Assembly: GCA_963768175.1 (NCBI GenBank)
Contig: CAVYGQ010000002.1
Span: forward strand, 7,270-71,269
Length of the DNA: 64,000 bases
DNA from: Candidatus Doudnabacteria bacterium
GTDB taxonomy: Bacteria > Patescibacteriota > Doudnabacteria > UBA920
Reading direction: 5' to 3'
Shown here: positions 1 to 61,931 of the stretch, in pieces
Position numbering within the stretch: the first letter of the stretch is position 1
How the letters are laid out: each line of letters starts with the position of its first letter
Translations under genes and position numbers: made by a program
The notes under the pieces: generated by a model
Databases searched by the model: none
What the model was told of the DNA's origin: nothing
What the model saw: only the letters and a program-made list of their open reading frames with translations

Positions 1-206
1 AGCAAAAAGGCATTAAATACATCTTTTTTGAAAGTTTGGTAAGCCCCAAACTCGCCCAAACCGTCGCCAATGAAATCGGCGCCAAGACTTTGGAGTTAAA
101 CCCCATTGAAGGTTTTACCGACGAGGAAATAGCCGCCGGGAAAAATTACATCAGCCAAATGAAAACTAACTTGGCCAATTTAAGAATTGCCCTTTTATGC
201 CAATAG
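1..206 (+). CDS. znuA: C-terminal fragment of metal ABC transporter substrate-binding protein (ZnuA/TroA family); 5' end is outside the window
   Basis: In-frame translation ...IKYIFFESLVSPKLAQTVANEIGAKTLELNPIEGF... is typical of the ZnuA C-terminus. Stop TAG at 204-206 overlaps the ATG of the next gene. Confidence 0.55.
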   Translation, partial: QKGIKYIFFESLVSPKLAQTVANEIGAKTLELNPIEGFTDEEIAAGKNYISQMKTNLANLRIALLCQ

Positions 207-952
207 AAAACCCGCTTATTGAAGTTTCGGACATAAGTTTTGCTTACAACGGCAATACCGTATTAGAGCATGTCAGTTTTAATATTGAGCCGGGGGATTA
301 CGTGGGCATAGTGGGACCCAATGGCGGAGGCAAAACCACCTTGCTTAAACTTTTGGTCGGGCTATTGCCGCCCCAATCCGGGAGCATAAAAATTTCCGGT
401 ATCCCAATAGAAAAATTCCAAGATAAATTTCAAATCGGCTATGTGCCGCAAAGGTCGGGGCAGGAAAACATAACTTTTCCGGCCACAGTTTATGAAGTTG
501 TGGAAAGCGGTTTGACGGCTAAAACTAAATTATTCAACCGGCTTACATCCCAAGACAGGCAGGCTATTGATAAGGCCCTGGCGACAGCGGACATTAAGGG
601 ATTAAAAGATAAACTCATTGGCAAGCTTTCGGGCGGGCAGAGGCAAAGGGTCTTCGTGGCCAGGGCTTTGGCTGCGCAGCCGAAAATTTTGATTCTGGAC
701 GAGCCGTTTGTCGGTATTGATGTGACAGCGCAAAAAGACTTTTATGCATTTTTAAAGGAACTTAATCAAAAAGAAAATTTAACCATCATGTTTGTCTCCC
801 ATGATATAGATATGATTACCGAAGAGGTTAAGTCTATTTTGTGCCTTAACCGCGGCCTTTTTTGTCTGGATAAGCCGGAATTGCTCCACGAGGGTAATAC
901 GATAGAAAGACTTTACGGTAAAAAGATCACCCATATTCACCATTCCCATTAA
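197..952 (+). CDS. znuC: zinc/manganese ABC transporter ATP-binding protein
   Basis: Walker A GPNGGGKTT, ABC signature LSGGQRQRV, Walker B ILDEP. Start overlaps the znuA stop. Confidence 0.85.
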   Translation: MPIENPLIEVSDISFAYNGNTVLEHVSFNIEPGDYVGIVGPNGGGKTTLLKLLVGLLPPQSGSIKISGIPIEKFQDKFQIGYVPQRSGQENITFPATVYEVVESGLTAKTKLFNRLTSQDRQAIDKALATADIKGLKDKLIGKLSGGQRQRVFVARALAAQPKILILDEPFVGIDVTAQKDFYAFLKELNQKENLTIMFVSHDIDMITEEVKSILCLNRGLFCLDKPELLHEGNTIERLYGKKITHIHHSH

Positions 953-956
953 TTTT

Positions 957-1751
957 ATGCTGGAAATATTCCAATACGATTTTATGATTAGAGCTTTCGC
1001 CGCCGGTTTGATTATCGGCGTCCTTGCCCCGATTGTCGGGATTTTTTTGGTGGTGAAGCGCTATTCGCTTTTGGCCGATACCCTTTCCCATGTTTCTTTG
1101 GTTGGCGTGGCGGCGGGGGTTTTGTTAAACTTTAATCCGATTTTTGGGGCCTTAATTGTTTCCATAGTAGCCGCTTTTGGCATGGAAAGACTGCGGGAAA
1201 AAAGACAGTTATTCGGGGAATCGGTTTTGGCTTTATTTCTTTCCGGGAGCCTGGCCATCGCTTTGATACTATTGGGGCTGTCGCATGGTTTGAACGTAAA
1301 CATTTTTTCTTATTTGTTCGGCAGCATTACTACAGTTTCTGCGGGCGATTTGTTTATGATCGGCAGTTTTGGCGCTTTGGTCATATTTGCCGCTTTTATT
1401 TTGTTTAAAAAGTTCTTCCTGGTGTCTTTTGATGAAGAGTTGGCCAAGGCCAACGGCTTGCCGGTAAGCGCCTTAAATATCAGCCTGATGGTTTTAGCGG
1501 CAATTGCCGTGGCTCTAAGCATGCGCGTGGTCGGCGTACTATTAATTGGCGCCTTAATGGTCATTCCGGTTTTAACCGCAGTCCAGCTGGGTAAAAGTTT
1601 TACAAAAACACTGTCATTGGCCCTCGCGGCCTCTTTAATTTCTGTAATCGCGGGCCTGTTCCTGTCTTTTTACCTAAACCTGCCCAGCGGTGCGGCAGTT
1701 GTCGCTTGCGCCCTGATTTTATTCGGTTTGAGCTTATTTAAGAAAAGGTAA
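957..1751 (+). CDS. znuB: metal ABC transporter permease (ABC-3 family)
   Basis: Polytopic hydrophobic protein immediately after znuC; operon context. Confidence 0.8.
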   Translation: MLEIFQYDFMIRAFAAGLIIGVLAPIVGIFLVVKRYSLLADTLSHVSLVGVAAGVLLNFNPIFGALIVSIVAAFGMERLREKRQLFGESVLALFLSGSLAIALILLGLSHGLNVNIFSYLFGSITTVSAGDLFMIGSFGALVIFAAFILFKKFFLVSFDEELAKANGLPVSALNISLMVLAAIAVALSMRVVGVLLIGALMVIPVLTAVQLGKSFTKTLSLALAASLISVIAGLFLSFYLNLPSGAAVVACALILFGLSLFKKR

Positions 1752-1813
1752 AAAGATAAAAGTAACTACCGGTTGACTGTTATAGAAAAATTCTTTTAAA
1801 TAGATATATACGC

Positions 1814-2026
1814 ATTGTATATTTACAATCCGCGGTATGGAAAGAAGGCAGGTTTTTTGTTGCCCAGTGTTTAAACGTGGATGTTTCTAGCTTTGGTAAA
1901 ACAAAAAAAGAAGCCTTAAAAAATTTACAGGAAGCCTTAGAGCTTTATTTTGAAGATACGAAGCTTGGGAAAATAACCCAAGTAAAAAACCCCGAATTTA
2001 CAAAATTGTCCATAGCTTATGCCTAA
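1814..2026 (+). CDS. HicB-like antitoxin family protein (UPF0150/COG1598 fold); start codon unclear, possible frameshift at a T6 run
   Basis: The frame gives ...YLQSAVWKEGRFFVAQCLNVDVSSFGKTKKEALKNLQEALELYFED..., matching the Y..V.KEG..FVA..PEL.GC..G.T.EEAL.N.KEA.ELY.E pattern of HicB-like proteins. There is no canonical start in this frame. ATG 1837 is in another frame and would join via the T6 run at 1853-1858. Confidence 0.4.
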   Translation: MVYLQSAVWKEGRFFVAQCLNVDVSSFGKTKKEALKNLQEALELYFEDTKLGKITQVKNPEFTKLSIAYA

Positions 2027-2062
2027 GCTACATTCCTCGCGTGAAATCATCAAAGTCCTGGA

Positions 2063-2104
2063 AAGCCCTGCCCTGTCGGATGACGGGGCGGGGCTTTGTT
2101 TTTT
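2063..2104 (+). terminator. rho-independent terminator hairpin (stem CCCTGCCCTGTC / GACGGGGCGGGG, loop GGAT) followed by a T-run
   Basis: GC-rich inverted repeat followed by TTTGTTTTTT, seen directly. Confidence 0.6.
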
Positions 2105-2177
2105 ATACTGAATTAATCAGGATTTTTGAAGATGTGTCATAATGGGGGCAAAAGAATTAACCTAAAGAAACAAAAAA

Positions 2178-3197
2178 ATGGAAAATCCAAATAATGAAGT
2201 TTTGCCTCCGTCTCAACCTGAACAGCTGTCGCCACAGTCTGTTCAGTTGGCACCAACCAAAAAATGGTATGCCGATAAAGCCGTAATGGCCATGCTTATT
2301 TTGGTGATTTTAGCCGCTTCATCGCTCGCAGCGTATTTTATTCTCAACCAGCCTCAAAATTTAGGGCCAGTAGTAGTTAGCCACCACAAAGCAAGTGAAC
2401 AAACCTCAAATAATAAAGCAGAGTTAACAGGCACAACGCCACCTGCAAACTCAATAGCCACCGCAAGTCCTGTAGTAGTATCTACTAGTTCTCCGCCAAC
2501 GACAGACGTAAATAATTGCGCAACTTCCGCAAACCAGGCACCTTGTTACGCAAATCAGGCGAAAGCACAAAAAAATCCAGCGATTTGCAAATTAGCCTCA
2601 TCGCAAGCGTTTACGGATATTTGCTATTATTATGTAGCCACGGGTACAAAAAATATACAGTTGTGTTCTCAAATACAGACACAGAATAAGAAAGACGGTT
2701 GCTATCTTTCTTTTGCTGCTACAAATAATGATGCTAAATTATGTTCTATGATTGTGACCCAAGCAGTGCATCAACAGTGCTTAGCTCTATTTCAGCCTAC
2801 AGTCGATACCACTCCCGTTTCAACATGGCTTAGTATGGACTTAGATAGCACAATTCTTACTGGCACGCCTGGTGAATCGGTAGAAATCACGGGTCAGATG
2901 CAGAACACCGCTACCAACACTCTTTATTTAAATGGCATGACCGGCAGTGTCGTGAGTGTGCTTAATGACCCAAGTAATAAAGGCGCCGATTTAACCCTTG
3001 ACCCAACTGATTTTTTTAGTTTAGTGCCCCCAAGTTTTCAACCGGGACAAAGCTATCAAGGTCCAATATTTTCAGTCCAAATTAGCAATAACGCAAAACC
3101 GGGAACTTATATATTTGGCTATACTCTCCAGGGAGGCAAAACGGAAAAAGATAATGAACAATTGCGAAGTGAGGAAATTTCAATTCAGGTTAAATAG
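2178..3197 (+). CDS. membrane-anchored secreted Cys-rich hypothetical protein
   Basis: N-terminal TM helix, then a long Ser/Thr/Cys-rich ectodomain. No recognisable family. Confidence 0.45.
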   Translation: MENPNNEVLPPSQPEQLSPQSVQLAPTKKWYADKAVMAMLILVILAASSLAAYFILNQPQNLGPVVVSHHKASEQTSNNKAELTGTTPPANSIATASPVVVSTSSPPTTDVNNCATSANQAPCYANQAKAQKNPAICKLASSQAFTDICYYYVATGTKNIQLCSQIQTQNKKDGCYLSFAATNNDAKLCSMIVTQAVHQQCLALFQPTVDTTPVSTWLSMDLDSTILTGTPGESVEITGQMQNTATNTLYLNGMTGSVVSVLNDPSNKGADLTLDPTDFFSLVPPSFQPGQSYQGPIFSVQISNNAKPGTYIFGYTLQGGKTEKDNEQLRSEEISIQVK

Positions 3198-3314
3198 TTT
3201 TTTAGAAAACAAGCGATTTGCCCCTCGACAAGCTCGGGACAAATTTTCCAAAATGGGATTTTGGAAGATTTGCTATTTTTTCCGCTTTAGTGTATAATCC
3301 TTTTATCATCTTAA

Positions 3315-3384
3315 GTTCACCCAGTTAAATAATCCAGCCGCAGGCTGGATTCCCGCTTCGCGGGATTTAACAGGGTAAAAGTGT
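3315..3384. repeat. structured palindromic element family A, copy 1 (outer stem ACCCAGTTAAAT/ATTTAACAGGGT enclosing two small hairpins)
   Basis: Outer 12-bp inverted repeat plus inner hairpins CCAGCCGCAGGCTGG and CCCGCTTCGCGGG. Related copies at 3454 and 55196. Confidence 0.7.
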
Positions 3385-3453
3385 TAGGCTTCGTGAAGAG
3401 TTCATCTCAAAGCGGGTTTAATAAGTAGAGCTTTATTTAAATAGTTAGTAAGA

Positions 3454-3523
3454 GTTCACCCTGTTAAATCTTCCCGACAAAGTCGGGAAGGCCGCAAAGC
3501 GGCATTTAACAGGGTAAAGGTGA
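3454..3523. repeat. structured palindromic element family A, copy 2
   Basis: Same outer stem ACCCTGTTAAAT/ATTTAACAGGGT. Different inner hairpins CTTCCCGACAAAGTCGGGAAG and GCCGCAAAGCGGC. Confidence 0.7.
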
Positions 3524-3548
3524 GGCTCTTATAGAAAGCCTATTAAAA

Positions 3549-3899
3549 ATGGCTAAGAAACTTTTTGTCGGCGGTATCCCCTGGGCTACCACTTCCGACG
3601 ACCTTCAGCAATTATTCAGCCAGCACGGCACTGTGGCTTCGGCTACCGTGATTACCGATAAAATGACTGGCCGAAGCAGAGGTTTTGGATTCGTAGAATT
3701 CGAAAATGACGCTGAAGCAGACGCCGCGATAGCGGCTTTAAATAATTCCGACTACAACGGCCGGACCTTGGTGGTCAAGGAAGCAAGACCGTTGGAAGAT
3801 CGCCCCAAGAGAAGCTTTGGCGACCGCGGTGGACGCGGCGGTTATGGTGGCGGTAACAATGGTGGCGGTTACGGCGGCGGCAGAAACGACCGCTACTAA
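3549..3899 (+). CDS. RRM-domain RNA-binding protein with Gly-rich RGG/GGY tail
   Basis: RNP-2 LFVGGI and RNP-1 RGFGFVEF motifs. C-terminal GGRGGYGGGNNGGGYGGG. Confidence 0.85.
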   Translation: MAKKLFVGGIPWATTSDDLQQLFSQHGTVASATVITDKMTGRSRGFGFVEFENDAEADAAIAALNNSDYNGRTLVVKEARPLEDRPKRSFGDRGGRGGYGGGNNGGGYGGGRNDRY

Positions 3900-3929
3900 G
3901 CCCCGATAAAATCTTTTTGTGATTTTGAA

Positions 3930-3970
3930 CTTCCCCCTTTTCCGCCGACTGGCGGAGGGGGAGTTTTTTA
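3930..3970 (+). terminator. rho-independent terminator (CTCCCCC...GGGGGAG hairpin plus T-run)
   Basis: Inverted repeat CTTCCCCCTTTTCCGCC/GGCGGAGGGGGAG followed by TTTTTTATT. Confidence 0.6.
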
Positions 3971-3974
3971 TTAG

Positions 3975-4076
3975 CGAAGAGCGGCGTCATCCTGAACGGA
4001 GTGAAGGATCTTTTATTACTTGACTTGTTTGAGATTCTTCGGTCGGTTGCTACTGCCTCAGAATGACGCCGAGTGA
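3975..4076. repeat. palindromic element family B (GGCGTCATCCTGAACG-AGTGAAGGATC ... CAGAATGACGCC)
   Basis: Long imperfect inverted repeat. Related copies at 53749, 59479 and 59920. Confidence 0.6.
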
Positions 4077-4116
4077 AGTAATTTTCCGATTTCCGATTTT
4101 CTGATATACTGCTTTT

Positions 4117-4527
4117 ATGTACAGAAAACATAAACATGACATAATTGTTATTTTAGCCGTCTTGGGTTTTGGCATTAGTTTGTATTTGGCCTTCGCCCAC
4201 TATTTGGGCTACACGGTTCCCTGCGACGCTACCCATGGCTGTGAGACAGTCCTAAACAGCAAATATTCGATACTTTTTGGTTTGCCTTTGGCGGTATGGG
4301 GGGTGGGTTACTTTATTGCGGTAATTATATCCGCGCTTTTGGCTAATAGTTATTCGTTGTGGAAAAAAATTTTGACCGGCCTTTTGGGCTTGGGAGCTTT
4401 GGCCGCTTTGGTCTTTTTGTCCCTGCAGTTTTTTGTTATCAAGAAAATTTGCCAGTATTGTCTGACCGCAGATCTGCTAAGCGTATTGCTGTTTATTATG
4501 GATATAAATATTGAACATAGGCTTTAG
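4117..4527 (+). CDS. vitamin K epoxide reductase (VKOR) family membrane protein
   Basis: Loop Cys pair CDATHGC, C-terminal CQYC active-site motif, multiple TM helices. Confidence 0.65.
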   Translation: MYRKHKHDIIVILAVLGFGISLYLAFAHYLGYTVPCDATHGCETVLNSKYSILFGLPLAVWGVGYFIAVIISALLANSYSLWKKILTGLLGLGALAALVFLSLQFFVIKKICQYCLTADLLSVLLFIMDINIEHRL

Positions 4528-4823
4528 CGGTTGTTTCGGTCCCTCCCCTTATTTTAAGGGGGGGTTAGGAGGGGATATTACCATCAGGTTTTAATATCAC
4601 CCCCGCCTGCCTACGCCTATTAATGGAGTTTAAGTGGATATTGAAAATTTATATAGTTATCAATATCCATCAGCCTTTCAAAAATAGGCATGGCGGGCAG
4701 GCCTAGCCCCCTCTTATGAATAAGAGGGGGAATATAGTTTTGCGTTTTAGCCTAAACTATGCTATACTTTTATAAATAGGTTTAGTATTCAAAGGACATA
4801 AAAATCAAACTTAATAAAGATAT

Positions 4824-5147
4824 ATGAATTTTGGGGATTTGACGACTTATTTATGGCTGGTGTTAGCCATTTTAGGTATTGGCAGCATCTATTTAATAGT
4901 TGAAGGTTACAGAGTCCACAAACTTTTTGCCGAATCCATAGTCGGCAAACTGATTAAAGCTTTGGTGGTAGTTTTTTTGATAGAACTATATTCCTTAGGA
5001 GTCGTTAGCTACGCTTTCCTTTTCTTTTATCCAAAAGGAGCGGTTGTCCTTTTGCCGATTGTGCTGCTTTGTATAGTGAGTTTAATTTTTGGAGTTTTTG
5101 CCGTTCGTTCAGCTAAAAAAGAAGTAACCAGTTTGGTTAATAAATAA
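4824..5147 (+). CDS. hypothetical membrane protein
   Basis: Three predicted TM helices. No recognisable family. Confidence 0.35.
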   Translation: MNFGDLTTYLWLVLAILGIGSIYLIVEGYRVHKLFAESIVGKLIKALVVVFLIELYSLGVVSYAFLFFYPKGAVVLLPIVLLCIVSLIFGVFAVRSAKKEVTSLVNK

Positions 5148-5467
5148 CAATTTTCGCTAAAGGCAGAGTCGCCTGCGGCGGAAAAGTAATATAGAAAACA
5201 AAATATGCCTACTCCCAACAGCCAACCCCCGGTAAATAACTACGACTCCAGATGGTTTATTTGGACCATTGTTTTTTTGGTCGTAACCGGTATTTCTTTG
5301 GTTAGCTATATTACCTTAAGCGGTACTGGGGATAACGATTCAGTAACTCCAACAGTGGTTACTCACCACGCAGTTCATCTTAAGTAATTTTGGTTTAACC
5401 TAAATTTTTTAAAGCTCGGCCCACGGTTTGTTGGGGCGGAGTTTTAAAAATTTATTGAGATTTTTAC

Positions 5468-5496
5468 TTGCAAAAAAAGCCAAGATGTGCTATAAT
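5468..5496 (+). promoter_or_regulatory. near-consensus sigma70-type promoter TTGCAA-N17-TATAAT
   Basis: TTGCAA at 5468-5473, a 17-nt spacer, TATAAT at 5491-5496. About 170 nt upstream of the CAP-domain gene. Confidence 0.5.
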
Positions 5497-5661
5497 ATAT
5501 AGAGAAATCAAATTTTCCAGTCAAAATAATTGGAAAATTTTCATTTTTTAGAAATCAAAACCAAAAACAACTGTAGATACACAGACAGCAGCAGATAATA
5601 CAAATAAACGCTTAAGCGTAATCTGTTTTTCGTTTGTGTATTGCCGCAAACAAAAATAAAA

Positions 5662-6966
5662 ATGGAGTATGTTTTAAATGCTATCGGCTTGCAGTCGCCC
5701 AGCTTTAGGAGAGCTTTTTCCCCTTTGGCTGATTTTGGGCGGCATTTGTACGACCATTTTATACCGCACGCGCGGAATAACTATCATCCGCATGTTTTAG
5801 GCCACAGAAGTTTGGCTTTAATGTCGGGACTTTTAGTTACCGTTAAAATTTTTACCCTAGCGCTGCTTTCCTTTGGCCCTGTGCTGCCCGCGTTTTCCGA
5901 AGCAATTACCGCGGGCAATATTATAACGCTTACCAACGCATCGCGCCAGGAATTTTCCGTTGCGTCTTTAACCGAAAATCAAATTTTAGATAAAGCGGCC
6001 CAGGCCAAAGCCGACGATATGTTGGCTAAAGGTTATTTTGCCCACAATTCTCCGGACGGGCGCACGCCTTGGGATTTTATTACCTCCGCCGGCTACAGTT
6101 ATTTAGTGGCTGGGGAAAATTTGGCTGTGAATTTTACCGAAGCCGAAAGTGTGGAAACCGCCTGGATGAACAGCCCTGGGCACAAAGCCAATATTTTAAA
6201 TAAAGATTTTCAGGATATCGGTATTGGCGTTTCCCAGGGCACTTATCAAGGGCATGACGCAATTTTTGTAGTCCAGGAATTTGGCAGGCCCGCTGCCCAG
6301 CAGATAACCCTGTCTAACAAGCCGACTCAGGTTCAGACTGCTTCCGTTCCCGCGCCGGCTATGGCGCCTGCGTTAGCTCAAGTAAAAAGCGCAAGTGTAC
6401 CGACCACACAATTGCCGGCAACCAACCCGGCCCAAATACAAACATCGCCGGTTGCCCAGGTACAGCCGCCTGCGCCGGTTGCCATAGAAGACGGCAATAT
6501 CCAGCTGGTGGGGGATAACGTACAAATTAACGCCCAAGTCAGCGGGCCGGCGGTAAAAGTCTTGGCTTTTTTCGGCCAGCAGGCAATTATGCTTTCGCCT
6601 AAGGACCAGACAACCTGGACCGGACAGGCGGAAGCTGCTGACTTGGCTCAAACCGATACCACGGTTAAGCTTCAGGCCACTGGTATGCAGGGGCAGACCA
6701 GCCAGCTGCAACTTGCGGATTTTTCCCTGGACACCCAGGCTAACTATAATTTATCCGCCAGTACGCCCCAGACATATGTGACTTTTATGGGGCAGACTTT
6801 TAACCCAAATGTTTACGAAACCCATTTTTATCTTCTATTTATGGCAGGCTTGCTTACTAGCCTGATTTTGGCCATAGCCGTAAAGCGCCACATCCAGCAT
6901 TTATCTCTAATTGCCAACAGCAGTTTTGTGATAATCTTCGCCGCCCTGCTTTTGTGGGCGGGATGA
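5662..6966 (+). CDS. CAP/SCP (PR-1-like) domain secreted protein with C-terminal membrane anchor; start uncertain (ORF opens at 5641)
   Basis: CAP-domain signature ...GYFAHNSPDGRTPWDFI...ENLAVNF...AWMNSPGHKANIL... Pro/Gln-rich linker and C-terminal TM. Confidence 0.65.
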   Translation: MEYVLNAIGLQSPSFRRAFSPLADFGRHLYDHFIPHARNNYHPHVLGHRSLALMSGLLVTVKIFTLALLSFGPVLPAFSEAITAGNIITLTNASRQEFSVASLTENQILDKAAQAKADDMLAKGYFAHNSPDGRTPWDFITSAGYSYLVAGENLAVNFTEAESVETAWMNSPGHKANILNKDFQDIGIGVSQGTYQGHDAIFVVQEFGRPAAQQITLSNKPTQVQTASVPAPAMAPALAQVKSASVPTTQLPATNPAQIQTSPVAQVQPPAPVAIEDGNIQLVGDNVQINAQVSGPAVKVLAFFGQQAIMLSPKDQTTWTGQAEAADLAQTDTTVKLQATGMQGQTSQLQLADFSLDTQANYNLSASTPQTYVTFMGQTFNPNVYETHFYLLFMAGLLTSLILAIAVKRHIQHLSLIANSSFVIIFAALLLWAG

Positions 6967-23509: not shown

Positions 23510-23784
23510 TTATTTGTTTCGTTTAGTTGTTAAAGAGCAAGCCGTATCAGCCTATCAAAAAAGGCCACCCGCTTGCCACATCTACCCTTTCGGATAGAGA
23601 CCTTAGGAAAGGCTAAGACAAGACGGATGACCATCTTCGCTTTCCTAAGGATTTTGCCATGCCGATGATTTCTTATCGGTTTAGGCAACAATTAAATTGT
23701 ATTTAAACTATAGCAAATTTTGCCTTTTAAATAAAGTGTGTTTTTTGTCTTGGCTTTTCCTCGTATTTGGAGCATAATTTAAGA

Positions 23785-26223: not shown

Positions 26224-27762
26224 ATGAAAAATATCATCTACTGCCGCCGCTCGTCCGAGGATTCCTATCATCAGGTGCTTTCCATTGAGAGCCAAGAAAA
26301 GGAATTATCGGCTTTTGCGGAAAAACAAAATATTGCCGTTGATAAGATTTTTACTGAAAGTATGTCGGCAAGGCGGCCGGGCAGACCTGAATTTGAAAAG
26401 TTGGTAAAGCTAATTGAGCATAACCCCGGCTCTGTGGTTTTGGTTTGGAAGCTTGACCGGCTCGCCCGTAACCCTATTGACGAGGGCAAAATTAAATGGC
26501 TATTGCAAACCGGAGTAATTGCCAAAATTGTTACTCCCGAAAAAACTTACTTTCCCGAAGACAATGTTTTAGTGTCCGGCGTAGAGTTCAGTATGGCCGC
26601 CCAATACAGCATTGACCTGTCCAAAAATGTTAAGCGCGGCAACAGAACCAAACTGGAAAGGGGCGAATGGCCAAACCGCTCACCGCTCGGCTACATTGAT
26701 AATAAAATCACCAAGCTAAAAGAAATTGACCCGATTAGAGCGCCGATGATACGGCAAGCTTTTGAACTTTACGCTACCGGCGGTTATTCGCTCAAGTATG
26801 TCAATCAGATTTTGGAAGATAAAGGCCTACGAACCAGAGAGGGGCTTAAGTTGAGCAAGGCACTTTTACATAAAACATTAATAAATCCATTTTACTACGG
26901 CACAATGAGAAGCAACGGCAAGCTTTATTCGGGTAATCATCCGCCCTTAATCAGCAAAACCCTGTTTGATAATGTCCAAGATGTCTTAAACGGCAAACAT
27001 CATTCTAAAATTCAAAAGCATTTTTTCCCATTAAGGGGATATATGAATTGTTATTCTTGCGGCTGTGCTTTAACTGCAACGACCAAAAAAGGCCACGTGT
27101 ATTATTACTGCACCAATGGCAAGGGAAACTGCGAACAGCACAAAAAATATTTAAGGGATAAGACTACCGATGAGTTAGTTGCTAAAGTTTTTGGTAATAT
27201 CCAGTTTGACAGCAACGAAATAGAAATTGCTTATGAGGCTGCCAAGCATAAAATCCTAAAACAGGGCGGCTCAACCGATGATAAAAAATCAGAACTGGCC
27301 AAACAGCTTAAAATGGCTCAAGGCAAACTCGCAAACCTGATTGAGCTGATTTCCTCTGACCCGGAGATGAAAGAAACCCTCAAGCCTAAAATTTTATCTC
27401 TGGAGCAGGATATAAAAACAATCACAAAGCAGATTTTTGATTTAGGCAAGGTAACGCCGGAGCAACAGTTGTCAACTTTGGAACAAACAAAAAAGGCCTT
27501 CTTACAGGCCAATTCTGCTAGTTTTGATTATCTTTCCGGCGATGACGCTAAAAAGTTTGAATTGCTTAAAAAGTTACTTTGGAACCTTAAGCTCCAAGAT
27601 AACAACGTTCAATGTTTTCAGCTCAAACAACCTTATCAGCTAATGGCGGAATCGCCAAAAAAGCTGGAAATTTTTCAGTGGTGGACCGTACCGGATTCGA
27701 ACCGGTTGCCTCCACATTGCAAATGTGGCGCTCTACCAAGTGAGCTAACGGCCCGTGATTAA
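26224..27762 (+). CDS. large serine recombinase (resolvase catalytic domain plus recombinase domain plus zinc ribbon); the last 25 codons are read across tRNA-Ala on the opposite strand
   Basis: N-terminal IIYCRRSSEDS...SIESQ...VLVWKLDRLARN catalytic domain. C-X2-C...C zinc ribbon CYSCGCAL...YYYCTNGKGNC. Coiled-coil tail. Confidence 0.75.
   Translation: MKNIIYCRRSSEDSYHQVLSIESQEKELSAFAEKQNIAVDKIFTESMSARRPGRPEFEKLVKLIEHNPGSVVLVWKLDRLARNPIDEGKIKWLLQTGVIAKIVTPEKTYFPEDNVLVSGVEFSMAAQYSIDLSKNVKRGNRTKLERGEWPNRSPLGYIDNKITKLKEIDPIRAPMIRQAFELYATGGYSLKYVNQILEDKGLRTREGLKLSKALLHKTLINPFYYGTMRSNGKLYSGNHPPLISKTLFDNVQDVLNGKHHSKIQKHFFPLRGYMNCYSCGCALTATTKKGHVYYYCTNGKGNCEQHKKYLRDKTTDELVAKVFGNIQFDSNEIEIAYEAAKHKILKQGGSTDDKKSELAKQLKMAQGKLANLIELISSDPEMKETLKPKILSLEQDIKTITKQIFDLGKVTPEQQLSTLEQTKKAFLQANSASFDYLSGDDAKKFELLKKLLWNLKLQDNNVQCFQLKQPYQLMAESPKKLEIFQWWTVPDSNRLPPHCKCGALPSELTARD
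27685..27760 (-). tRNA. tRNA-Ala(UGC), CCA encoded
   Basis: Reverse complement is GGGCCGTTAGCTCACTTGGTAGAGCGCCACATTTGCAATGTGGAGGCAACCGGTTCGAATCCGGTACGGTCCACCA. G3:U70 Ala identity pair, anticodon loop TTTGCAA, T-arm GGTTCGAATCC. Confidence 0.85.
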
Positions 27763-27777
27763 TCTGGAAAGGTGGGC

Positions 27778-27826
27778 GGGTGAACAAACCGGGTGCTCTG
27801 CCACTAAGCTAACGGCCCCTGCTTCG
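27778..27826 (-). pseudogene. tRNA 5'-half remnant (GGGCCGTTAGCTTAGTGGCAGAGCACCCGG...)
   Basis: Acceptor and D-arm resemble the adjacent tRNA-Ala, but no intact anticodon or T arms. Confidence 0.4.
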
Positions 27827-27897
27827 CTAAAGCTACGCAGGGCAAGCCTGCGAGATTAGTGTTTTTTTAAAATTCCCGAGGGTTGACCTCGGGATTA

Positions 27898-28167
27898 TCA
27901 TACCAGCATTTGGATTAACATCGAGGTCGGAGCAATGCTCGGGGCGTTATTGCCGCCGGGCAGTTTGTTAAACAGCCACAGTACGGACAAAATGCACAAA
28001 ATCAGGCCGAACAGTTTCCACCAGGTATAAGTGCCGGCGCCAACGCCCGTGCCCAAATATTTTTCCGCCAAATCAATTTTGCCGGAAAATTGGTCGGTAA
28101 TGGCTACCGAATATTTCATAATTAGGACACCGGCAACAAAAACTAGGGGAGAGAAAATGAAACGCAT
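27898..28167 (-). CDS. small hypothetical membrane protein
   Basis: ORF with two TM helices, between the tRNAs. Confidence 0.3.
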   Translation of the reverse strand: MRFIFSPLVFVAGVLIMKYSVAITDQFSGKIDLAEKYLGTGVGAGTYTWWKLFGLILCILSVLWLFNKLPGGNNAPSIAPTSMLIQMLV

Positions 28168-28248
28168 AAATTTAGTTATCAGGTTAAAAGTTTCAAGTTA
28201 TCAAGTAGGGACACTTTTAACTTTCAACTTGATAACTTTTAACTTAAC

Positions 28249-28323
28249 TGGTGCGTGTGGCAGGGATCGAACCTGCGACCCCGTCATTATCAGTGACGTG
28301 CTCTACCACTGAGCTACACACGC
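28249..28323 (-). tRNA. tRNA-Ile(GAU), CCA encoded
   Basis: Reverse complement is GCGTGTGTAGCTCAGTGGTAGAGCACGTCACTGATAATGACGGGGTCGCAGGTTCGATCCCTGCCACACGCACCA. Anticodon loop CTGATAA. Confidence 0.85.
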
Positions 28324-31491: not shown

Positions 31492-33252
31492 ATGGATACG
31501 CCAATAAAAACCAGCCCTGCTCCAGTCTCTTCTTTGGGTTTTGAGAAATTTTTGGTTGATAACGGATTTATCAAAGCCCAAATTGCCGCCCAGATTCAGG
31601 CGCTGCGGCAGAAAACCGGCCGAGATTTTGGGCAACTGTTAATAAGCCAAAAAGCTTTGGACGAAGAAGATTTAACCAAAGCCAAAGCGGCTTTTTTTAA
31701 TTTACCATACATTGATTTGCGGCAAGTACCGGTGCTGCCTCAGGTTTTGGCTTTAATCCCCATTGAATCCGTAAATTTTTATAACTTTGTGCCGTTTGAG
31801 CTTACCGGCAGGAGTTTGAAAGTAGCGATTACCGACCCGTCTAATTTATCCGCTTTGGAAGCCTTGGAATTTTTAGGCCAAAAGCAAAATTTGCAGGTTC
31901 AGTTGTATTTGGCTTCGGAAACCTCTGTAGGAGTAGTCATGGGGAAAAAGCAGAACTTAAAAAAAGTCGTGGGTGAAGCCTTAAAGGATATTCAAACCAA
32001 AGAGACCGCCTCACAAAAACCTGCCGAAGCCAGAAAGGAACAAAAGCCCAAGGTTATTGAAGAGGCGCCTATAATTAAGATCGTGGAGGTAATTTTAACC
32101 AATGCCATCGAGGCAAACGCCTCCGATATTCATATTGAGCCCTCGGAAAAAGATGTACGGGTACGCTATCGGATTGACGGTATCCTTCATACTTCGTTGA
32201 TGCTGCCCAAGAGCGTGCAGCCATCCATTGCCTCCAGAATCAAAATTTTGTCCAATTTAAAAATTGACGAATCCCGTCTGCCCCAAGACGGGCGGTTTCA
32301 TATGGAAGCCGGGAAAAAATCCGTGGATTTGCGCGTTTCCATTTTGCCTCTTATTTACGGCGAAAAAATTGTCATGCGTATTTTGGATAAAACCACCAAG
32401 GCCCCGACCTTAGACCAGCTTGGTGTGCGCGGCAGGGCTTTGTCCTGGATCAATGAAAATCTTAAAAAGAACCACGGCATTTTTTTAATCACCGGACCCA
32501 CCGGCTCAGGTAAGTCCACCACGCTGTATTCAGTTTTATCCATTCTTAATACCACCTCGGTTAATATTGTTACTCTGGAAGACCCGGTGGAATATTTTAT
32601 CGAAGGAGTCAACCAAAGCCAAATTAATCCGGACATTGGCCTGACTTTTGCTTCCGGCCTTAGGAGTGTTTTGCGCCAAGATCCTAATATAATTATGGTT
32701 GGTGAAATTCGTGACAAAGAAACGGCGGAATTGGCCGTGCAGGCGGCTTTAACAGGCCATCTGGTCTTTTCCACTCTGCATACTAACAACGCCATCGGTG
32801 CCATTCCCCGTTTAATAGATATGGGCATGGAACCTTTCCTGCTGGTGGCTTCAATAAATGTGGTTGCCGCCCAGCGCCTGATCAGGAAAATTTGCCCGGA
32901 TTGCCGCAAGGAGGTGGTTTTAACTAAAGCCGTGGAAGAAGAAATCAGGAAAGAAATTACCGGAGTCCCAGACGATTATTTTGAAGGTTTGGATAAAAGA
33001 AACTTGAAAATTTATAAGGGGGACGGTTGTGAGAAGTGCGGGCATACTGGCTACGTCGGTCGTATGGGGATATTTGAAGTTCTGCCTACCACCACGGAAA
33101 TTCAAGATTTAATTTTGGGGAGAAATACCGCCCACAGAATTTATGAAGAGGCGCAAAAAATCGGCATGGTTAGTTTAAAACAGGATGGCATTATTAAAGC
33201 TTTACGCGGCGATACCACCATGGAAGAGGTTATTAGGGTAACAACGGAGTAA
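31492..33252 (+). CDS. pilB: type IV pilus assembly ATPase PilB (GspE family)
   Basis: N-terminal GSPII_E_N, Walker A GPTGSGKSTTLYS, Asp and His boxes, C-terminal tetracysteine CPDC...CEKC. Confidence 0.9.
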   Translation: MDTPIKTSPAPVSSLGFEKFLVDNGFIKAQIAAQIQALRQKTGRDFGQLLISQKALDEEDLTKAKAAFFNLPYIDLRQVPVLPQVLALIPIESVNFYNFVPFELTGRSLKVAITDPSNLSALEALEFLGQKQNLQVQLYLASETSVGVVMGKKQNLKKVVGEALKDIQTKETASQKPAEARKEQKPKVIEEAPIIKIVEVILTNAIEANASDIHIEPSEKDVRVRYRIDGILHTSLMLPKSVQPSIASRIKILSNLKIDESRLPQDGRFHMEAGKKSVDLRVSILPLIYGEKIVMRILDKTTKAPTLDQLGVRGRALSWINENLKKNHGIFLITGPTGSGKSTTLYSVLSILNTTSVNIVTLEDPVEYFIEGVNQSQINPDIGLTFASGLRSVLRQDPNIIMVGEIRDKETAELAVQAALTGHLVFSTLHTNNAIGAIPRLIDMGMEPFLLVASINVVAAQRLIRKICPDCRKEVVLTKAVEEEIRKEITGVPDDYFEGLDKRNLKIYKGDGCEKCGHTGYVGRMGIFEVLPTTTEIQDLILGRNTAHRIYEEAQKIGMVSLKQDGIIKALRGDTTMEEVIRVTTE

Positions 33253-33345
33253 TGACAAAAATGACAAAAACGACGGAAATTAAAAAAATTACTGCATCAA
33301 TATTTTTGTCATTTTTATTATTTTTTTAATTTTTGTCATTTGCTT
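33251..33345. repeat. pil-cluster inverted-repeat element family C (arms ATGACAAAAATGACAAAAA / TTTTTGTCATTTTTATTAT), copy 1 of at least 5
   Basis: Related copies at 33790-33885, 36263-36360, 37485-37580 and 40525-40595 (partial). Each ends a few nt upstream of, or overlapping, the next start codon. Confidence 0.7.
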
Positions 33346-33773: not shown

Positions 33774-33893
33774 TAAAATTTTTCGTTTTAGCATTAATTT
33801 TTTAATGACAAAAATTAAAAAAATAATAAAAATGACAGAAATATTACTGCAGTCAATTTTTGCTCAATTTTGTCATTTTTGTCAATAACCCTT

Positions 33894-36258: not shown

Positions 36259-36539
36259 GTAGCAATGACAAAATTGACAAAAATTAAATAAATGACAAAA
36301 ATAATGTACCCAATAATTTTTTAATTTTTGTTCATTCTTGTCATTCTTGTCATTATCCCTTATGTGTATAACTCTCCTTGCCTATTAATAAAAAAATGGT
36401 ATAATATAATTAACTTAAATATTATCCTTTAGTTTCTAAAAAACGCCGTGACTTAAGTTGGAGGGGACAAAGAGCTTAAGCTGGTTTTTTCCTAGCTTAA
36501 AGTTCGGCGGGGAATTAAAGGGTTATTTTTAGAATAAGA

Positions 36540-37086: not shown

Positions 37087-37485
37087 GTGAATTTTCATTT
37101 TTCAAACAAAATTAAAATTTTATTAAGCAGCCTCATAGCGGCTGTTGTTTTATTATTGGCGGTTGTTGGAGGAGTAAATAACGGCAAAAAAATCGCTCAA
37201 GCAAAAATTCTTATCCAAACTTCCAAGAGCGCGGCCTCGGCCCTACAATATTTTTATCAGGATCAAAACCGCTACCCCACGGCCACGGAGTTTGAAAATC
37301 AAAACCTTATGTTAAGCTATTTCAGTAATTTCCCTTTACCCAATTATCCATCCTCGGCCTGCAGCCAGAGCTTTGTTTATAAAAGAGCGGATCCGGCGGC
37401 TTTTAGCTTAAGTTTTTGTTTGCCGGTTGCTTCCAGTGGTTATCAGGCGGGATGGAACAATATTAATGGCTCGATGGGGAAATGA
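37087..37485 (+). CDS. hypothetical membrane-anchored protein with C-terminal Cys pair (pilin-like fold possible)
   Basis: N-terminal TM without a GFTLIE motif. Cys pair ACSQ...FCLP. Confidence 0.3.
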   Translation: MNFHFSNKIKILLSSLIAAVVLLLAVVGGVNNGKKIAQAKILIQTSKSAASALQYFYQDQNRYPTATEFENQNLMLSYFSNFPLPNYPSSACSQSFVYKRADPAAFSLSFCLPVASSGYQAGWNNINGSMGK

Positions 37486-37563
37486 CAAAAAGGACAAAAA
37501 CGACGTAAATGACTAAAATGTGACTGCGGTTTATTTTTGTCATTTTTATTATTTATTTAATTT

Positions 37564-51694: not shown

Positions 51695-51735
<41 letters not shown>

Positions 51736-52376
51736 CACCCCGGAAGGGGGATGAAATAGTATCTGAAACCGTATACTTACAAGGAGTGGAAGACCTTATT
51801 CTTTTTTCCGCAAGGTTAAGGGAATGGTTAACCGCGTGCCTATTGAAGAATGATCCAACGAGTTAATCTTTAGCAGCTTGATTAAGTCTTACCAAAGACG
51901 AAATCGCAGTGAAAGCGAGGATGAATAGTCCGTATTAGGATTTTGATCGGTCGATGACTTAGGTTATCGACCGCGACAATTTCCTAAATGTTGCTAGAGT
52001 TAGACCCGAAACCCGGTGAGCTACGCATGGCCAGGATGAACGTTATGTAAAAGTAACGGGAGGTCCGGACGCACTATTGCTGCAAAAATAGGCGATGAGC
52101 TGTGCGTAGGGGAGAAATTCCAATCGAACCGGGTGATAGCTGGTTCTCCTCGAAATAGCTTTAGGGCTAGCGTCGAGAGTTCCCTTGAGAGGTAGAGCAC
52201 TGAATGGAAACCTGCTGCGCAAGCGGTAGGCTCCAACCAAACTCCGAATTCTCAAGGTCAAGATCTCGGCAGTCAGTCCGTGAGGTCTAAGCTTCACGCG
52301 ACAAATGGAGAAGAATCCACACCACCGTCTAAGGCCCCCAAATCCTAGCTATAGTGCAAAGGATGTGGGGTTGCTC

Positions 52377-52413
<37 letters not shown>

Positions 52414-52511
52414 TAAAGAAAGCGTAACAGCTCACTGGTCAAGCGATCCCGCGCCGACAATATATAGGGGCTAAGCTAGGTGCCGAAGACGTGGATCAGC
52501 GCGTAGCGCTG

Positions 52512-54692: not shown

Positions 54693-54731
<39 letters not shown>

Positions 54732-54735
54732 GTGA

Positions 54736-54772
<37 letters not shown>

Positions 54773-55195: not shown

Positions 55196-55257
55196 TTAAC
55201 CCTGTTAAATGCCGCTTTGCGGCAATTTGCTTTCGGCAAATTATTTAACAGGGTGAA
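55196..55257. repeat. structured palindromic element family A, copy 3 (in 23S-5S spacer)
   Basis: Outer stem ACCCTGTTAAAT/ATTTAACAGGGT. Inner hairpins GCCGCTTTGCGGC (the inverse of copy 2's GCCGCAAAGCGGC) and ATTTGCTTTCGGCAAAT. Confidence 0.7.
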
Positions 55258-60026: not shown

Positions 60027-61931
60027 ATGCAACTATCAGAATTTAAAAAGATATATCAAGAATCCATCAAAGATCCCGAAAAGTTCTGGGAGAAAGTTGC
60101 ACGTGAGGAAATCGTCTGGTTTAAAAAGTGGGACAAGGTTTTTGAGTGGGATTATCCTAACTATAAATGGTTTGCGGGAGGGAAGCTGAACATTACCCAT
60201 AACTGTTTGGACAGGCATATTGCTTCCGGATTGGGCGATAAAATTGCGCTGATTTATTTAAACGAAAAATATGAGAGGATTGCGATAACTTATCAGGAAC
60301 TGCTTAATCAGGTCAGTAAGTTTGCCAATGGGTTAAAAAGTTTGGGTGTAAAAAAAGGTGACAAGGTGGTTTTGTATATGCCGCTGGTAATAGAGCAGGC
60401 GGTTGCGATGCTGGCTTGCGCCCGCATCGGCGCGGTGCATAGCGTGGTATTTGCGGGCTTTAGCGCCAACGCCTTGCGCGAAAGGGTGGAAGATTTACGG
60501 GCAAAAATTATTGTCACGGCAACCTGGACCCAGCGCCGCGGGGAAAAGAAATTATTGAAGCCCGCGGCTGAAGAGGCTATTAAAGGTTTGGATTTTGTAG
60601 AGCATCTGGTAGTTTTACAGAGATGGGCACCATCTCGCGGCGAGATGGTGCCCATCTCCGGCATTGAGAGGGATTTTTACCAACTGACAGAAAAGCAAAA
60701 CGATATTTGCGAGCCGGAAATAATGGATGCGGAAGACCCTTTGTTCGTGCTGTATACTTCCGGTTCCACCGGCAAACCTAAAGGCATCGTCCACAGTTGC
60801 GGCGGTTTTTTGGTTTACGCGCACCATACTTTAAAAACAGTTTTTGATATTCGGGAAAACGATATCTACCCCGTTAGAAGTCAGACGCCGAAGGCGTCTG
60901 CTGGCCTGCCAAAGGCAGGCCAGACTTCTAACGGGGTGTATTGGTGCACCGCGGACTTTGGCTGGATAACCGGCCACAGTTACGTGTTGTATGGGCCGCT
61001 GTCTAACGGTCTGACATCGCTTATGGTGGAAGGCGCGCCGGATTTTCCCGCTCCCGACCATTGGTATAAAATTATTGAACAGGAAAAAGTAAATATTTTT
61101 TATACCTCGCCAACGGCTTTAAGGATGCTTAGGAAATACGGCGAAGAATATTGCAAACTTCACGACTTATCCTCGTTAAAAATTTTGGGCACGGTCGGCG
61201 AGCCCATTAATCCCGAAGTCTGGCGATGGTATTTTAAATTTATCGGTAACGAACGCTGCCCGATTGTAGATACCTGGTGGCAAACGGAGACCGGCGGGCA
61301 TATGGTGGTGACTTTGCCGGGATTGCCGCAAAAACCCGGCAAAGCGGGGTTCCCCTTTTACGGCATAGATGCCGGCGTTGTCAACCAAAGCGGGCAAGAG
61401 TTGCCGATTAACGAAAAAGGCTTTTTAGTCGTCAAAAAACCCTGGCCCGGGGCTTTGCGCGGCTGCTGGAATAATCCCGAGAGGTTTAATCAATATTGGA
61501 GTGAGTTTCCAGGCGTTTTTTTTACCGGAGACTTTGCCATAAAAGATGAAGACGGTTATATCCAAATTTTGGGGCGCAGCGACGACGTCATTAACGTATC
61601 AGGGCATCGCATTGGCACCGCGGAAGTGGAAAATGTTTTGGTGGCACACGTTGCGGTTGCCGAGGCCGCGGTTATTGCCAAACCCGATGAAATTAAAGGC
61701 GAGCGGCTTAAAGCTTTTGTGGTGTTAAAGACAGAGATTGTCGGCGATGAAGTTTTGAAGTCAAATATCCAAAAGTTTATTAAAGCGGAAATTGCCTCGT
61801 TCGCCGTTCCGGAGGAAATAGAATTTGTTTCTAGCCTTCCTAAAACCCGCAGCGGCAAAATTATGCGCCGCGTGCTTAAAGCCAAAGAACTGGGGCAGAG
61901 CGAAGGCGACCTGACAACTTTGGAAGACTAA
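60027..61931 (+). CDS. acs: acetyl-CoA synthetase (AMP-forming) carrying a 69-nt in-frame palindromic insertion
   Basis: YTSGSTGKPKG, ...YWCTAD(F/V)GWITGHSY..., C-terminal SGKIMRR. The insertion PVRSQTPKASAGLPKAGQTSNGV interrupts the conserved DIY-WCTADVGW block. Confidence 0.9.
   Translation: MQLSEFKKIYQESIKDPEKFWEKVAREEIVWFKKWDKVFEWDYPNYKWFAGGKLNITHNCLDRHIASGLGDKIALIYLNEKYERIAITYQELLNQVSKFANGLKSLGVKKGDKVVLYMPLVIEQAVAMLACARIGAVHSVVFAGFSANALRERVEDLRAKIIVTATWTQRRGEKKLLKPAAEEAIKGLDFVEHLVVLQRWAPSRGEMVPISGIERDFYQLTEKQNDICEPEIMDAEDPLFVLYTSGSTGKPKGIVHSCGGFLVYAHHTLKTVFDIRENDIYPVRSQTPKASAGLPKAGQTSNGVYWCTADFGWITGHSYVLYGPLSNGLTSLMVEGAPDFPAPDHWYKIIEQEKVNIFYTSPTALRMLRKYGEEYCKLHDLSSLKILGTVGEPINPEVWRWYFKFIGNERCPIVDTWWQTETGGHMVVTLPGLPQKPGKAGFPFYGIDAGVVNQSGQELPINEKGFLVVKKPWPGALRGCWNNPERFNQYWSEFPGVFFTGDFAIKDEDGYIQILGRSDDVINVSGHRIGTAEVENVLVAHVAVAEAAVIAKPDEIKGERLKAFVVLKTEIVGDEVLKSNIQKFIKAEIASFAVPEEIEFVSSLPKTRSGKIMRRVLKAKELGQSEGDLTTLED
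60869..60936 (+). repeat. perfect nested palindrome (14-bp outer stem CCCCGTTAGAAGTC/GACTTCTAACGGGG enclosing two hairpins) inserted in-frame in acs
   Basis: Inner hairpins AGACGCC-GAA-GGCGTCT and CTGGCCTGCC-AAA-GGCAGGCCAG. Total 69 nt, which is 23 codons. Confidence 0.8.

Follow-up and report, generated by a model that had tools for sequence, protein, structure and literature searches.

The 64,000-nucleotide stretch of Candidatus Doudnabacteria DNA analysed here (contig CAVYGQ010000002.1, positions 7,270 to 71,269; hereafter "the window") contains four copies, one of them diverged, of a short repeat in which an invariant inverted repeat of 11 bp, CCCYGTTAAAT ... ATTTAACRGGG, surrounds a variable interior. 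These copies probably represent a family of mobile DNA elements that are miniature, non-coding and palindromic and are distributed across several phyla. Mobility is favoured by the presence or absence of the element at orthologous sites in the genes for KsgA and acetyl-CoA synthetase (ACS), by in-frame insertions, by unlinked dispersal, and by nested and tandem copies. The pairing of arms and interior is maintained while the interior sequence changes freely, and the interior can flip between the arms. The units insert without duplication, most often directly after a T-rich tetranucleotide (TTTA). The best reading is a non-autonomous, structure-dependent element, akin to the Rickettsia palindromic elements (RPE), to REP sequences and to the mitochondrial double-hairpin elements (DHE). 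The element is probably selfish.

Conserved arms and free interiors

Scanning one genome per species for exact arms (CCCTGTTAAAT-N15-45-ATTTAACAGGG) returned at least 118 loci; since our scans demanded exact arms, the conservation of the arms is partly a selection effect. According to the record titles, the hosts among the matches listed are Patescibacteria sensu lato (Nealson-, Parcu-, Sacchari-, Niyogi-, Nomura- and Moranii-bacteria), Desulfobacterales and other Desulfobacterota (including a 4.1-Mb contig), WOR-3/Stahlbacteria, Omnitrophota and Cloacimonadota, together with single metagenome-assembled genomes of Armatimonadota, Acidobacteriota, Bacteroidales and Proteobacteria. With arms of 11-15 bp, units of 45-75 bp and no open reading frame (ORF), the family falls within the size and terminal-repeat range of MITEs, the miniature inverted-repeat transposable elements.

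The interiors are nearly always one or two perfect hairpins with loops of 3-4 nt, and their sequences differ from copy to copy. We counted 233 distinct copies in all DNA examined, 100 of which carry exactly two perfect abutting hairpins. Some interiors are common within a phylum and form subfamilies: an AATT-based long hairpin with a GC-rich short hairpin in Patescibacteria and Omnitrophota, and TCTCGC/GCGAGA with CGGC/GCCG in Desulfobacterales. Near-identical interiors at different loci of one genome (L115, L120, L140) point to recent spread. At what appears to be a single locus (flanks AACCTTTA ... TGCTCA), the interior of L184 is flipped relative to those of L097, L136 and L159. Whether the long or the short hairpin comes first shows no link with flank asymmetry (16 versus 12).

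An earlier note on the window had proposed that architecture is conserved over sequence. This is borne out at large scale by the loci of the genome scan (at least 118), with their covarying, perfectly paired interiors. In an alignment of 15 copies sharing the geometry of copies 1 and 2 of the window, changes on both sides of a pair were found in 8 of the 9 long-hairpin pairs and in 3 of the 5 short-hairpin pairs. Paired cells amount to 94% in this alignment, and none of 500 shuffles reached the observed values; the set was picked for perfect hairpins, which inflates the percentage paired, not the sequence diversity.

Conserved structure with variable sequence is also what the attC recombination sites of integrons would present. 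The attC core and inverse-core consensus are GTTRRRY and RYYYAAC, arranged in the order RYYYAAC (R'') ... GTTRRRY (R'), and the arms of the present family do contain GTTAAAT and ATTTAAC. However, the order of the boxes is reversed here, being GTTRRRY ... RYYYAAC on both strands, and we rejected attC on this ground. The stems are moreover perfect, with no extrahelical bases. Neither cassette arrays nor a nearby integrase accompany the copies, which are dispersed among housekeeping genes and inside ORFs. That the copies are integron-type sites or relics of them thus seems to us next to impossible.

Several arrangements around the arms should be recorded separately. At eleven WOR-3/Stahlbacteria loci the arms enclose a conserved 40-nt unpaired interior, and the whole belongs to a larger, roughly 125-bp repeat with direct repeats of TCTGTGG and, downstream, a TTGACA box before genes. 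At eleven Desulfobacterales loci a longer context, CGCAGTGAYTTG [core] CGGGGGATGAGG, recurs in different species; therefore the mobile or conserved unit exceeds the core in that group. Twelve further loci belong to a second three-way-junction family with the outer stem TTCAAATCTT / AAGATTTGAA, in which one inner hairpin consists of the present arm pair with a 4-nt loop at its tip (ATTTAACAGGG-TNNA-CCCTGTTAAAT), so that palindromic modules are used again in different combinations. A 6.9-kb contig (JAHJJO010000063.1) carries the same 1252-aa ORF on both strands (155-3913 on the plus strand, 3022-6780 on the minus strand). It is probably an artefact of palindromic assembly, and for this reason we did not treat its two inverted copies as independent. 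In viral contigs a loose arm pattern gave 87 matches, only one of them a family member, and the permuted arm pattern gave none; the element is therefore not phage-associated.

In-frame copies and empty sites

The copies lie between tandem (69), convergent (13) or divergent (9) genes. No recurrent neighbour gene emerged from an all-against-all clustering of 1115 neighbouring ORFs. A Pfam scan of genes bracketed by two copies identified housekeeping functions only, such as PGK, Era, YbeY, TyrRS, DnaJ and L5. Nested copies occur at two loci (L132 and L184).

About one tenth of the copies lie within long ORFs. At least seven, counting the ACS copy of the window, are in frame in conserved genes, and six of these are confirmed by Pfam in domains or linkers of an amidase (GatA), DsbD_2, FtsZ, a class-V aminotransferase (Aminotran_5), a GT4 glycosyltransferase and KsgA/RsmA (RrnaAD). 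In-gene copies are always in open frame, fall in permissive loops of the housekeeping proteins concerned and are translated as [H/Y]PVK...FNRV or TLLN...LTG. No frame-breaking copy splitting a gene was found; the tight intergenic cases are ordinary spacers, in some of which the element donates a stop codon.

The KsgA gene allows occupied and empty sites to be compared. We collected 118 full-length homologues of the KsgA protein of locus L105, about 106 of which are empty (ELAKRVKKVIAVEKD) and 12 occupied at the same codon. In a neighbour-joining tree the occupied homologues are scattered over no fewer than five separate clades. Between the KsgA genes of L105 and L209 the elements are about 93% identical at the nucleotide level, while the proteins are 64% identical; therefore repeated insertion or strong constraint is favoured over simple descent. 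It should also be noted that two other KsgA homologues carry a different, GC-rich palindromic insert (KPARQSAGASRRLAG / KPARNAFGIADAG; KPAR...AGG) at nearly the same codon. The sharing of this site by two kinds of insert suggests a hot spot or a permissive loop.

In the ACS gene of the window, copy 4 adds 24 residues, (Y)PVRSQTPKASAGLPKAGQTSNGV(Y), between DI and YWCTAD. This site is occupied in one of 120 homologues; the other 119 are empty, including an orthologue with 78% identity, and empty-site DNA was taken from two relatives (L297 and L298). The same ACS gene contains, at 60620-60658, a perfect palindrome with arms of 18/19 bp (GAGATGGGCACCATCTCGC / GCGAGATGGTGCCCATCTC), translated in frame as QRWAPSRGEMVPIS, which falls in a loop of hypervariable length among ACS homologues. 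It may be another kind of in-frame palindromic insert.

These distributions bear on a second explanation, namely that the copies are REP/BIME-like repeats in the service of the host, acting as sites for a nucleoid protein, gyrase or an Xer-type recombinase, or as transcript-end or insulator hairpins, with mobility secondary or ancient. An arm sequence invariant across phyla, tandem clusters with a fixed 4-nt spacing, and the apparent single locus described above (L097, L136, L159 and L184), occupied across species with an interior evolving by compensatory change, would all agree with such a role, as would the possible likeness of the arm to the XerD arm of E. coli dif (see the comparison below). 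On the other hand, the copies follow no positional rule relative to genes, no T-run follows the stem as a terminator would require, in-frame copies in essential genes fit poorly with a site function, and most orthologues do without a copy. We therefore regard a primarily host-serving repeat as unlikely.

Insertion junctions

Three junctions are resolved by comparison of occupied and empty genes. In KsgA the empty sequence is GCT AAA AGA GTA AAA AAA and the occupied one AGA GT[T CAC CCT GTT AAA T...A TTT AAC AGG GT]A AAA. A second KsgA lineage reads AAA G[TT CAC CCC GTT...AAC GGG G]CA GGA and matches empty KKAGKV relatives, whose DNA is deduced from the protein. In ACS the occupied sequence is GAT ATC TA[C CCC GTT...GGG GTG TA]T TGG TGC, against empty GAT ATA TAT TGG TGC and GAT ATT TAC TGG TGT. 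In all three the insert amounts to the core (CCCYG...CRGGG) plus 4 nt, with an ambiguity of at most 1-2 nt, and no target-site duplication is common to them.

The only register that fits all three junctions is left flank, CCCYG...CRGGG-TGAA (or TGTA), right flank, on the strand with the T-G pair at the stem base. The element is asymmetric, as this single register puts its own 4 nt on one side only. The own tetranucleotide is TGAA, or TGTA or TAAA in variants. Flanking pairs are TTTA...TGAA or its reverse complement in 33 cases, and perfectly complementary in 5. The left flank in 60 oriented copies has T at the first position in 41, T at the second in 49, T at the third in 54 and A at the fourth in 38; other left flanks, such as CCTG and TCTA, occur. 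Applied to the nested copy of L132, this register gives back a plausible hairpin of 4 bp whose loop is CCTG.

Tandem arrays provide a further view of the unit. A metagenome scan for the permuted arrangement ATTTAACAGGG-N0-12-CCCTGTTAAAT yielded 91 junctions at 85 loci, mostly between head-to-tail neighbours and many of them joining different elements. The spacer is exactly 4 nt in about 80 of the 91, most often TAAA (26), TTCA (19), TTTA (16), TGAA (12) or TTGA (4). The period of the arrays equals the unit length (34 nt, six times, in one array and 60 nt in another). Therefore the insertion unit and the tandem unit agree.

An ordinary MITE, that is, a deletion derivative of an insertion sequence (IS) moved by cut-and-paste through a DDE transposase binding terminal inverted repeats of 11-15 bp, would readily explain the small size, the terminal repeats, the lack of an ORF, and the multicopy, dispersed, nested and in-gene occurrence, and the ACS copy is indeed flanked by TA..TA. 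The junctions speak otherwise. Models with a TA or a 4-bp duplication are ruled out by the KsgA junctions, neither type of which has a target-site duplication, and none fits all three sites; there is, besides, a 4-nt asymmetry between the ends. A full-length element ending in this way was not found in about 1.3 Mb of flanking DNA, in which solo arms occur at chance level, and selection on interior hairpins is not a trait of DDE-mobilised MITEs. One candidate for an autonomous parent was rejected: this pair of arms, in L190, brackets thiolase and TetR genes. An origin as a conventional MITE is accordingly improbable.

DNA palindrome or RNA

The pairs of the inner stems are CG (643), AT (511) and GT (35), that is, 3% G-T, with the same numbers on the complementary strand. 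The copies are thus true DNA palindromes, because the counts are equal on both strands and G-T pairs are few. The orientation of the copies relative to flanking genes, taken as a proxy for the replication strand, is 25 versus 14 overall, which is not significant.

The earlier note had offered a functional RNA fold and a structure-recognised mobile element as alternatives. The second is supported by the present analysis, whereas the first is not. A structured RNA would here be a cis-regulatory leader, a stability or processing element, or a small RNA, with the three-way junction as its functional unit. The strong fold and the abundant covariation are what such an RNA would produce; copies 1 and 2 are preceded by a promoter-like site and followed by the start of a gene for an RRM protein, copy 3 is co-transcribed with rRNA, and one strand favours a T-G (G-U) pair at the base of the stem. 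Yet copies 1 and 2 are inverted relative to copy 3 while all three are transcribed from the plus strand, and across loci the orientation relative to flanking co-directional genes is opposite in 20 cases and the same in 12. The low G-T content, with stems equally perfect on both strands, is not that of an RNA. Copies occupy divergent, convergent and tandem spacers alike, as well as ORFs in frame, and no unpaired nucleotide of the junction or the loops is conserved. No Rfam 15 family matches the elements at gathering thresholds, and with E-values up to 10 the matches are just chance microRNA-like ones (13-21 bits against thresholds of 43-86). An RNA function is in our opinion very improbable. 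The family shows that strong covariation can arise in DNA palindromes without an RNA function, which calls for caution in the discovery of RNA motifs.

Possible mechanism

Since the neighbourhoods of the copies contain no candidate enzyme, the mechanism of transposition is deduced from anatomy alone. Recognition would probably depend both on a single strand folded into a three-way junction (or a dumbbell) and on the sequence of the 11-bp duplex formed by the arms. The enzyme would be supplied in trans and would make its cuts at the left arm's 5' edge and 4 nt past the right arm. One conceivable route is single-strand peel-and-paste by an HUH/Y1-like transposase, with which the absence of a duplication, the asymmetry of the ends and a T-rich target would fit, whereas the elements moved by such enzymes do not have paired inverted ends. 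Alternatively, a site-specific recombinase might act on the joined ends ATTTAACAGGG-TGAA-CCCTGTTAAAT, a palindrome of 26 bp. Template switching or mismatch correction within the hairpins may account for hairpins that are perfect yet variable, and for flipped interiors and loops.

A more specific proposal, which we put forward tentatively and with considerable doubt, is that units of 34-75 nt move as unit-length single-stranded dumbbell circles and would thus be among the smallest site-specifically processed mobile DNAs. In such a circle the arms would form a duplex of 11 bp, capped by the TGAA loop at one end and by the free-sequence hairpins at the other. A phylum-crossing enzyme, either a host Xer-type recombinase, in view of the possible likeness of the arm to the outer XerD half of dif, or an unrecognised HUH enzyme, would cut at ATTTAACRGGG-NNNN|CCCYG. 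The 4-nt tail would help to pick T-N-N-A targets by pairing, and hairpin-templated correction would keep the drifting and flipping interiors paired.

Several observations weigh against a mobile element. The same KsgA codon is occupied in distant lineages, which could reflect one old insertion followed by many precise losses. Copies 1 to 3 of the window show no difference between empty and occupied sites in the comparison with the sole other contig available for them (L207), which is of the same strain and 99.98% identical; synteny for copies 1 and 2 is absent in L206. The 8-kb neighbourhoods contain no transposase, no autonomous parent and no candidate enzyme. The invariance of the 11-bp arm across phyla exceeds what is usual for decaying selfish DNA and may reflect a host-level function or a host-encoded partner. 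The tetranucleotides of the arrays (TAAA, TTTA, TTGA) are not all compatible with a single rule of an own TGAA. The choice of the covariation set, mentioned above, belongs to the same account. We nevertheless consider a mobile DNA element the probable identity of the family.

Copies and other features of the window

The three look-alike copies of the earlier note are present at 3316-3379, 3455-3518 and 55196-55257, with arms CCC[T/A]GTTAAAT / ATTTAACAGGG around two abutting perfect hairpins. Exact matches to ACCCTGTTAAAT occur at 3458-3469 (+), 3504-3515 (-), 3365-3376 (-), 55199-55210 (+) and 55243-55254 (-), and the left arm of copy 1 (3319-3330, ACCCAGTTAAAT) has a single mismatch to it. 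The pattern GTTAAAT-N15-45-ATTTAAC is found three times in the window against 0.06 expected by chance. Copies 1 to 3 fold on either strand, with RNA or DNA parameters, into the outer stem and two abutting hairpins without an unpaired base at the junction. The z-scores are -5.5 to -10 (RNA parameters) and -6 to -10.5 (DNA parameters), and no shuffle equalled them.

The earlier description needs some correction. The arms are indeed shared, but the conserved outer stem of 12 bp is interrupted in copy 1 by an A-A mismatch (CCCAG versus CAGGG); the pairing of the outer stem also reaches about 3-4 bp past the 12 bp (TTTA..TGAA, one strand having a T-G pair). The inner hairpins are perfectly paired as described, but they are not fully different, since unrelatedness holds for the long hairpins only. 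Copies 2 and 3 have the same short hairpin, GCCGC-NNN-GCGGC, read on the minus strand in copy 2 and on the plus strand in copy 3, and that of copy 1 (CCCGC..GCGGG) is one compensated pair away from it. Copy 3 is inverted relative to copies 1 and 2.

A covariance model (R1), built from the 15 same-geometry copies and run on the window, recovered copies 1 to 3 at 71-83 bits and the diverged copy 4 (match 60865-60940, 33.6 bits, E about 2e-6). The units and their parts are listed in Table 1.

Table 1. Copies of the element and two RNA features in the window
Feature	Position	Strand	Score	Description
Copy 1, putative inserted unit (core plus own 4 nt)	3316..3375	-	82.3 bits (minus strand)	Plus-strand order: TTCA; CCCAGTTAAAT; long hairpin 3331-3351 (AATCCAGCC-GCA-GGCTGGATT); short hairpin 3352-3364 (CCCGC-TTC-GCGGG); ATTTAACAGGG
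Copy 1, flank	3376-3379			TAAA, pairs with TTCA
Copy 2, putative inserted unit	3455..3514	-	82.9 bits	TTCA; CCCTGTTAAAT 3459-3469; long hairpin 3470-3490 (CTTCCCGAC-AAA-GTCGGGAAG); short hairpin 3491-3503 (GCCGC-AAA-GCGGC); ATTTAACAGGG 3504-3514
Copy 2, flank	3515-3518			TAAA
Copy 3, putative inserted unit	55200..55257	+	70.8 bits	Starts 10 nt past the 3' end of the large-subunit (LSU) rRNA; CCCTGTTAAAT 55200-55210; short hairpin 55211-55223 (GCCGC-TTT-GCGGC); long hairpin 55224-55242; ATTTAACAGGG 55243-55253; own TGAA 55254-55257
Copy 3, left flank	55196-55199			TTAA
Copy 4, diverged, 72 nt	60869..60940	+		In frame inside the ACS gene (60027-61931); DNA-fold z = -12; CCCCGTTAGAAGT; hairpins 60882-60900 and 60901-60923 (both perfect); ACTTCTAACGGGG; own TGTA
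LOOT RNA motif (RF03000)	23561-23687	-	56.6 bits	
tRNA-Ile(GAT) and tRNA-Ala(TGC) pair	27679-28323	-		Such pairs are typical of 16S-23S spacers; on the strand opposite to the 23S gene, at a distance of about 23 kb

Copies 1 and 2 are situated between an ORF of 339 aa (2178-3197) and the gene for the RRM protein (3549-3899). Upstream of them are a terminator-like hairpin (3240-3272) and a promoter-like site (3270-3298), and both copies would ride in the 5' leader of the mRNA for that protein. Copy 3 falls within the spacer between 23S and 5S, as the earlier note had it (LSU 51009-55190, 5S 55654-55769), and would be carried in the spacer of the pre-rRNA. The window copies are without demonstrable host function.

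The rRNA region has further features of its own. The 23S gene spans 4182 nt against a model of 2925 positions and thus carries insertions of about 1.25 kb, including an A/T-rich inverted-repeat region (52497-52661); an Rfam scan found no intron family at threshold in it. After copy 3 the spacer has two small hairpins at 55298-55340 (TCTCCCCC-TTT-GGGGGAGA and TGTCTC..GAGACA), the sole match of which is a weak whalefall-1-like one (14.5 bits, E 0.67). No 16S gene is present in the window. Given this and the distance of the tRNA pair, the rRNA genes appear unlinked.

Other repeats occur elsewhere. The 670-bp spacer between glmS and the ACS gene contains two long imperfect hairpins (59358-59440 and 59483-59549) of the type GTCATTGCGAG...CTCGCAATGAC, and the corresponding 191-bp spacer of the relative L298 contains one similar motif; these look like a separate repeat family. 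A/T-rich intergenic inverted repeats of AATGACAAAA-like units recur in one gene cluster (33251-33341, 33802-33888, 36264-36354 and 37481-37571).

Significance

One tiny DNA module has spread through the small-genome Patescibacteria and several other uncultivated phyla. It adds loops of 16-24 residues to essential enzymes (KsgA, the GatA-type amidase, FtsZ, ACS) and punctuates operons and rRNA spacers. The family is thereby a hidden source of protein and genome variation, and also of annotation and assembly artefacts in metagenome-assembled genomes. Its anatomy is clean, the 11-bp arm being invariant, the hairpin interior free, the tail 4 nt long and duplication absent, and makes the question of the mobilising enzyme directly testable. 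The nature of an enzyme that moves minimal palindromes is a question common to RPEs and to mitochondrial hairpin elements. Unusual in the present case are the cross-phylum spread, the invariant arm, the asymmetric insertion without duplication, and the presence in essential proteins of reduced genomes.

Comparison with known systems

REP, BIME and REPIN sequences are short palindromes with a conserved tetranucleotide by the stem. They cluster in arrays of fixed spacing and are recognised in a folded, single-stranded form; their transposase is RAYT, a Y1 HUH enzyme. The present family resembles them in the tetranucleotide TGAA adjoining the stem and in copies clustered at an exact 4-nt spacing. 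However, REPs lie outside genes, are each restricted to one species or genus and border a RAYT gene, whereas the present copies also lie in genes and have an arm common to phyla. We found no RAYT or Y1 HUH transposase gene in windows of 8 kb around the copies, and pairs of copies bracket housekeeping genes.

The arms also recall recombinase sites, in that the joined ends of the unit form a 26-bp palindrome with the layout of such a site. In its outer 8 nt, TGTTAAAT, the arm CCCTGTTAAAT would agree with the XerD arm of the dif site of E. coli (GGTGCGCATAA-TGTATA-TTATGTTAAAT). Sites of that kind have a spacer of 6-8 nt with arms of 11 bp, against 4 nt here (6 with arms of 10 bp). Both halves of the present palindrome would be XerD-like, in contrast to dif, and the targets apparently carry no such site.

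With IS200/IS605 elements, and with their miniature derivatives (PATEs), the family shares the lack of duplication, asymmetric ends and insertion 3' of a T-rich target (TTAC for IS608, TTTA(C) here). Hairpins are near both ends in these elements too, and precise excision is plausible. The present ends, in contrast, are perfect inverted repeats that pair with each other, and the hairpins vary between copies. The conserved subterminal hairpins bound by TnpA, with non-inverted ends, that characterise IS200/IS605 members are not seen here, and no TnpA or TnpB gene was found in the 8-kb neighbourhoods.

RPEs are small non-coding palindromic repeats of intergenic and RNA-gene regions that also occur in frame in unrelated housekeeping genes, to which they add a short peptide (PMC10969869). 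In-frame palindromic insertion into unrelated protein genes is also what the present family exhibits. Compared by published description, RPEs differ in their length (about 100-150 bp against 45-75 bp), in their restriction to Rickettsia against many phyla, and in sequence. An invariant stem around free-sequence hairpins is not a feature of RPEs, and the asymmetric duplication-free ends belong to the present family. Classical bacterial MITEs (Correia/NEMIS, RUP, ERIC) are occasionally intragenic (PMC10969869) and resemble the family in their terminal inverted repeats, lack of an ORF and high copy number, but they have target-site duplications and a recognisable parent IS, neither of which was seen here.

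The DHEs of Allomyces are two-hairpin mobile repeats without flanking duplications, as stated in a report citing Paquin et al. 2000 (PMC2800124). According to the same report, the frequency of mitochondrial hairpin elements (DHEs, yeast GC clusters and others) differs between close relatives. DHEs and GC clusters are organellar and lineage-specific and have no enclosing invariant stem, whereas the present family is bacterial and crosses phyla.

A literature search with the arm sequence returned unrelated matches only, such as PCR-primer sequences (PMC3177234, a primer table), and no description of palindromic or MITE elements in the candidate phyla radiation (CPR), Parcubacteria or Patescibacteria was found in the searchable literature. 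The family is thus without a description in Rfam 15 or in the searchable literature; its anatomy is nearest to REP/BIME and IS200/IS605, and its behaviour is nearest to that of RPEs and mitochondrial DHEs.

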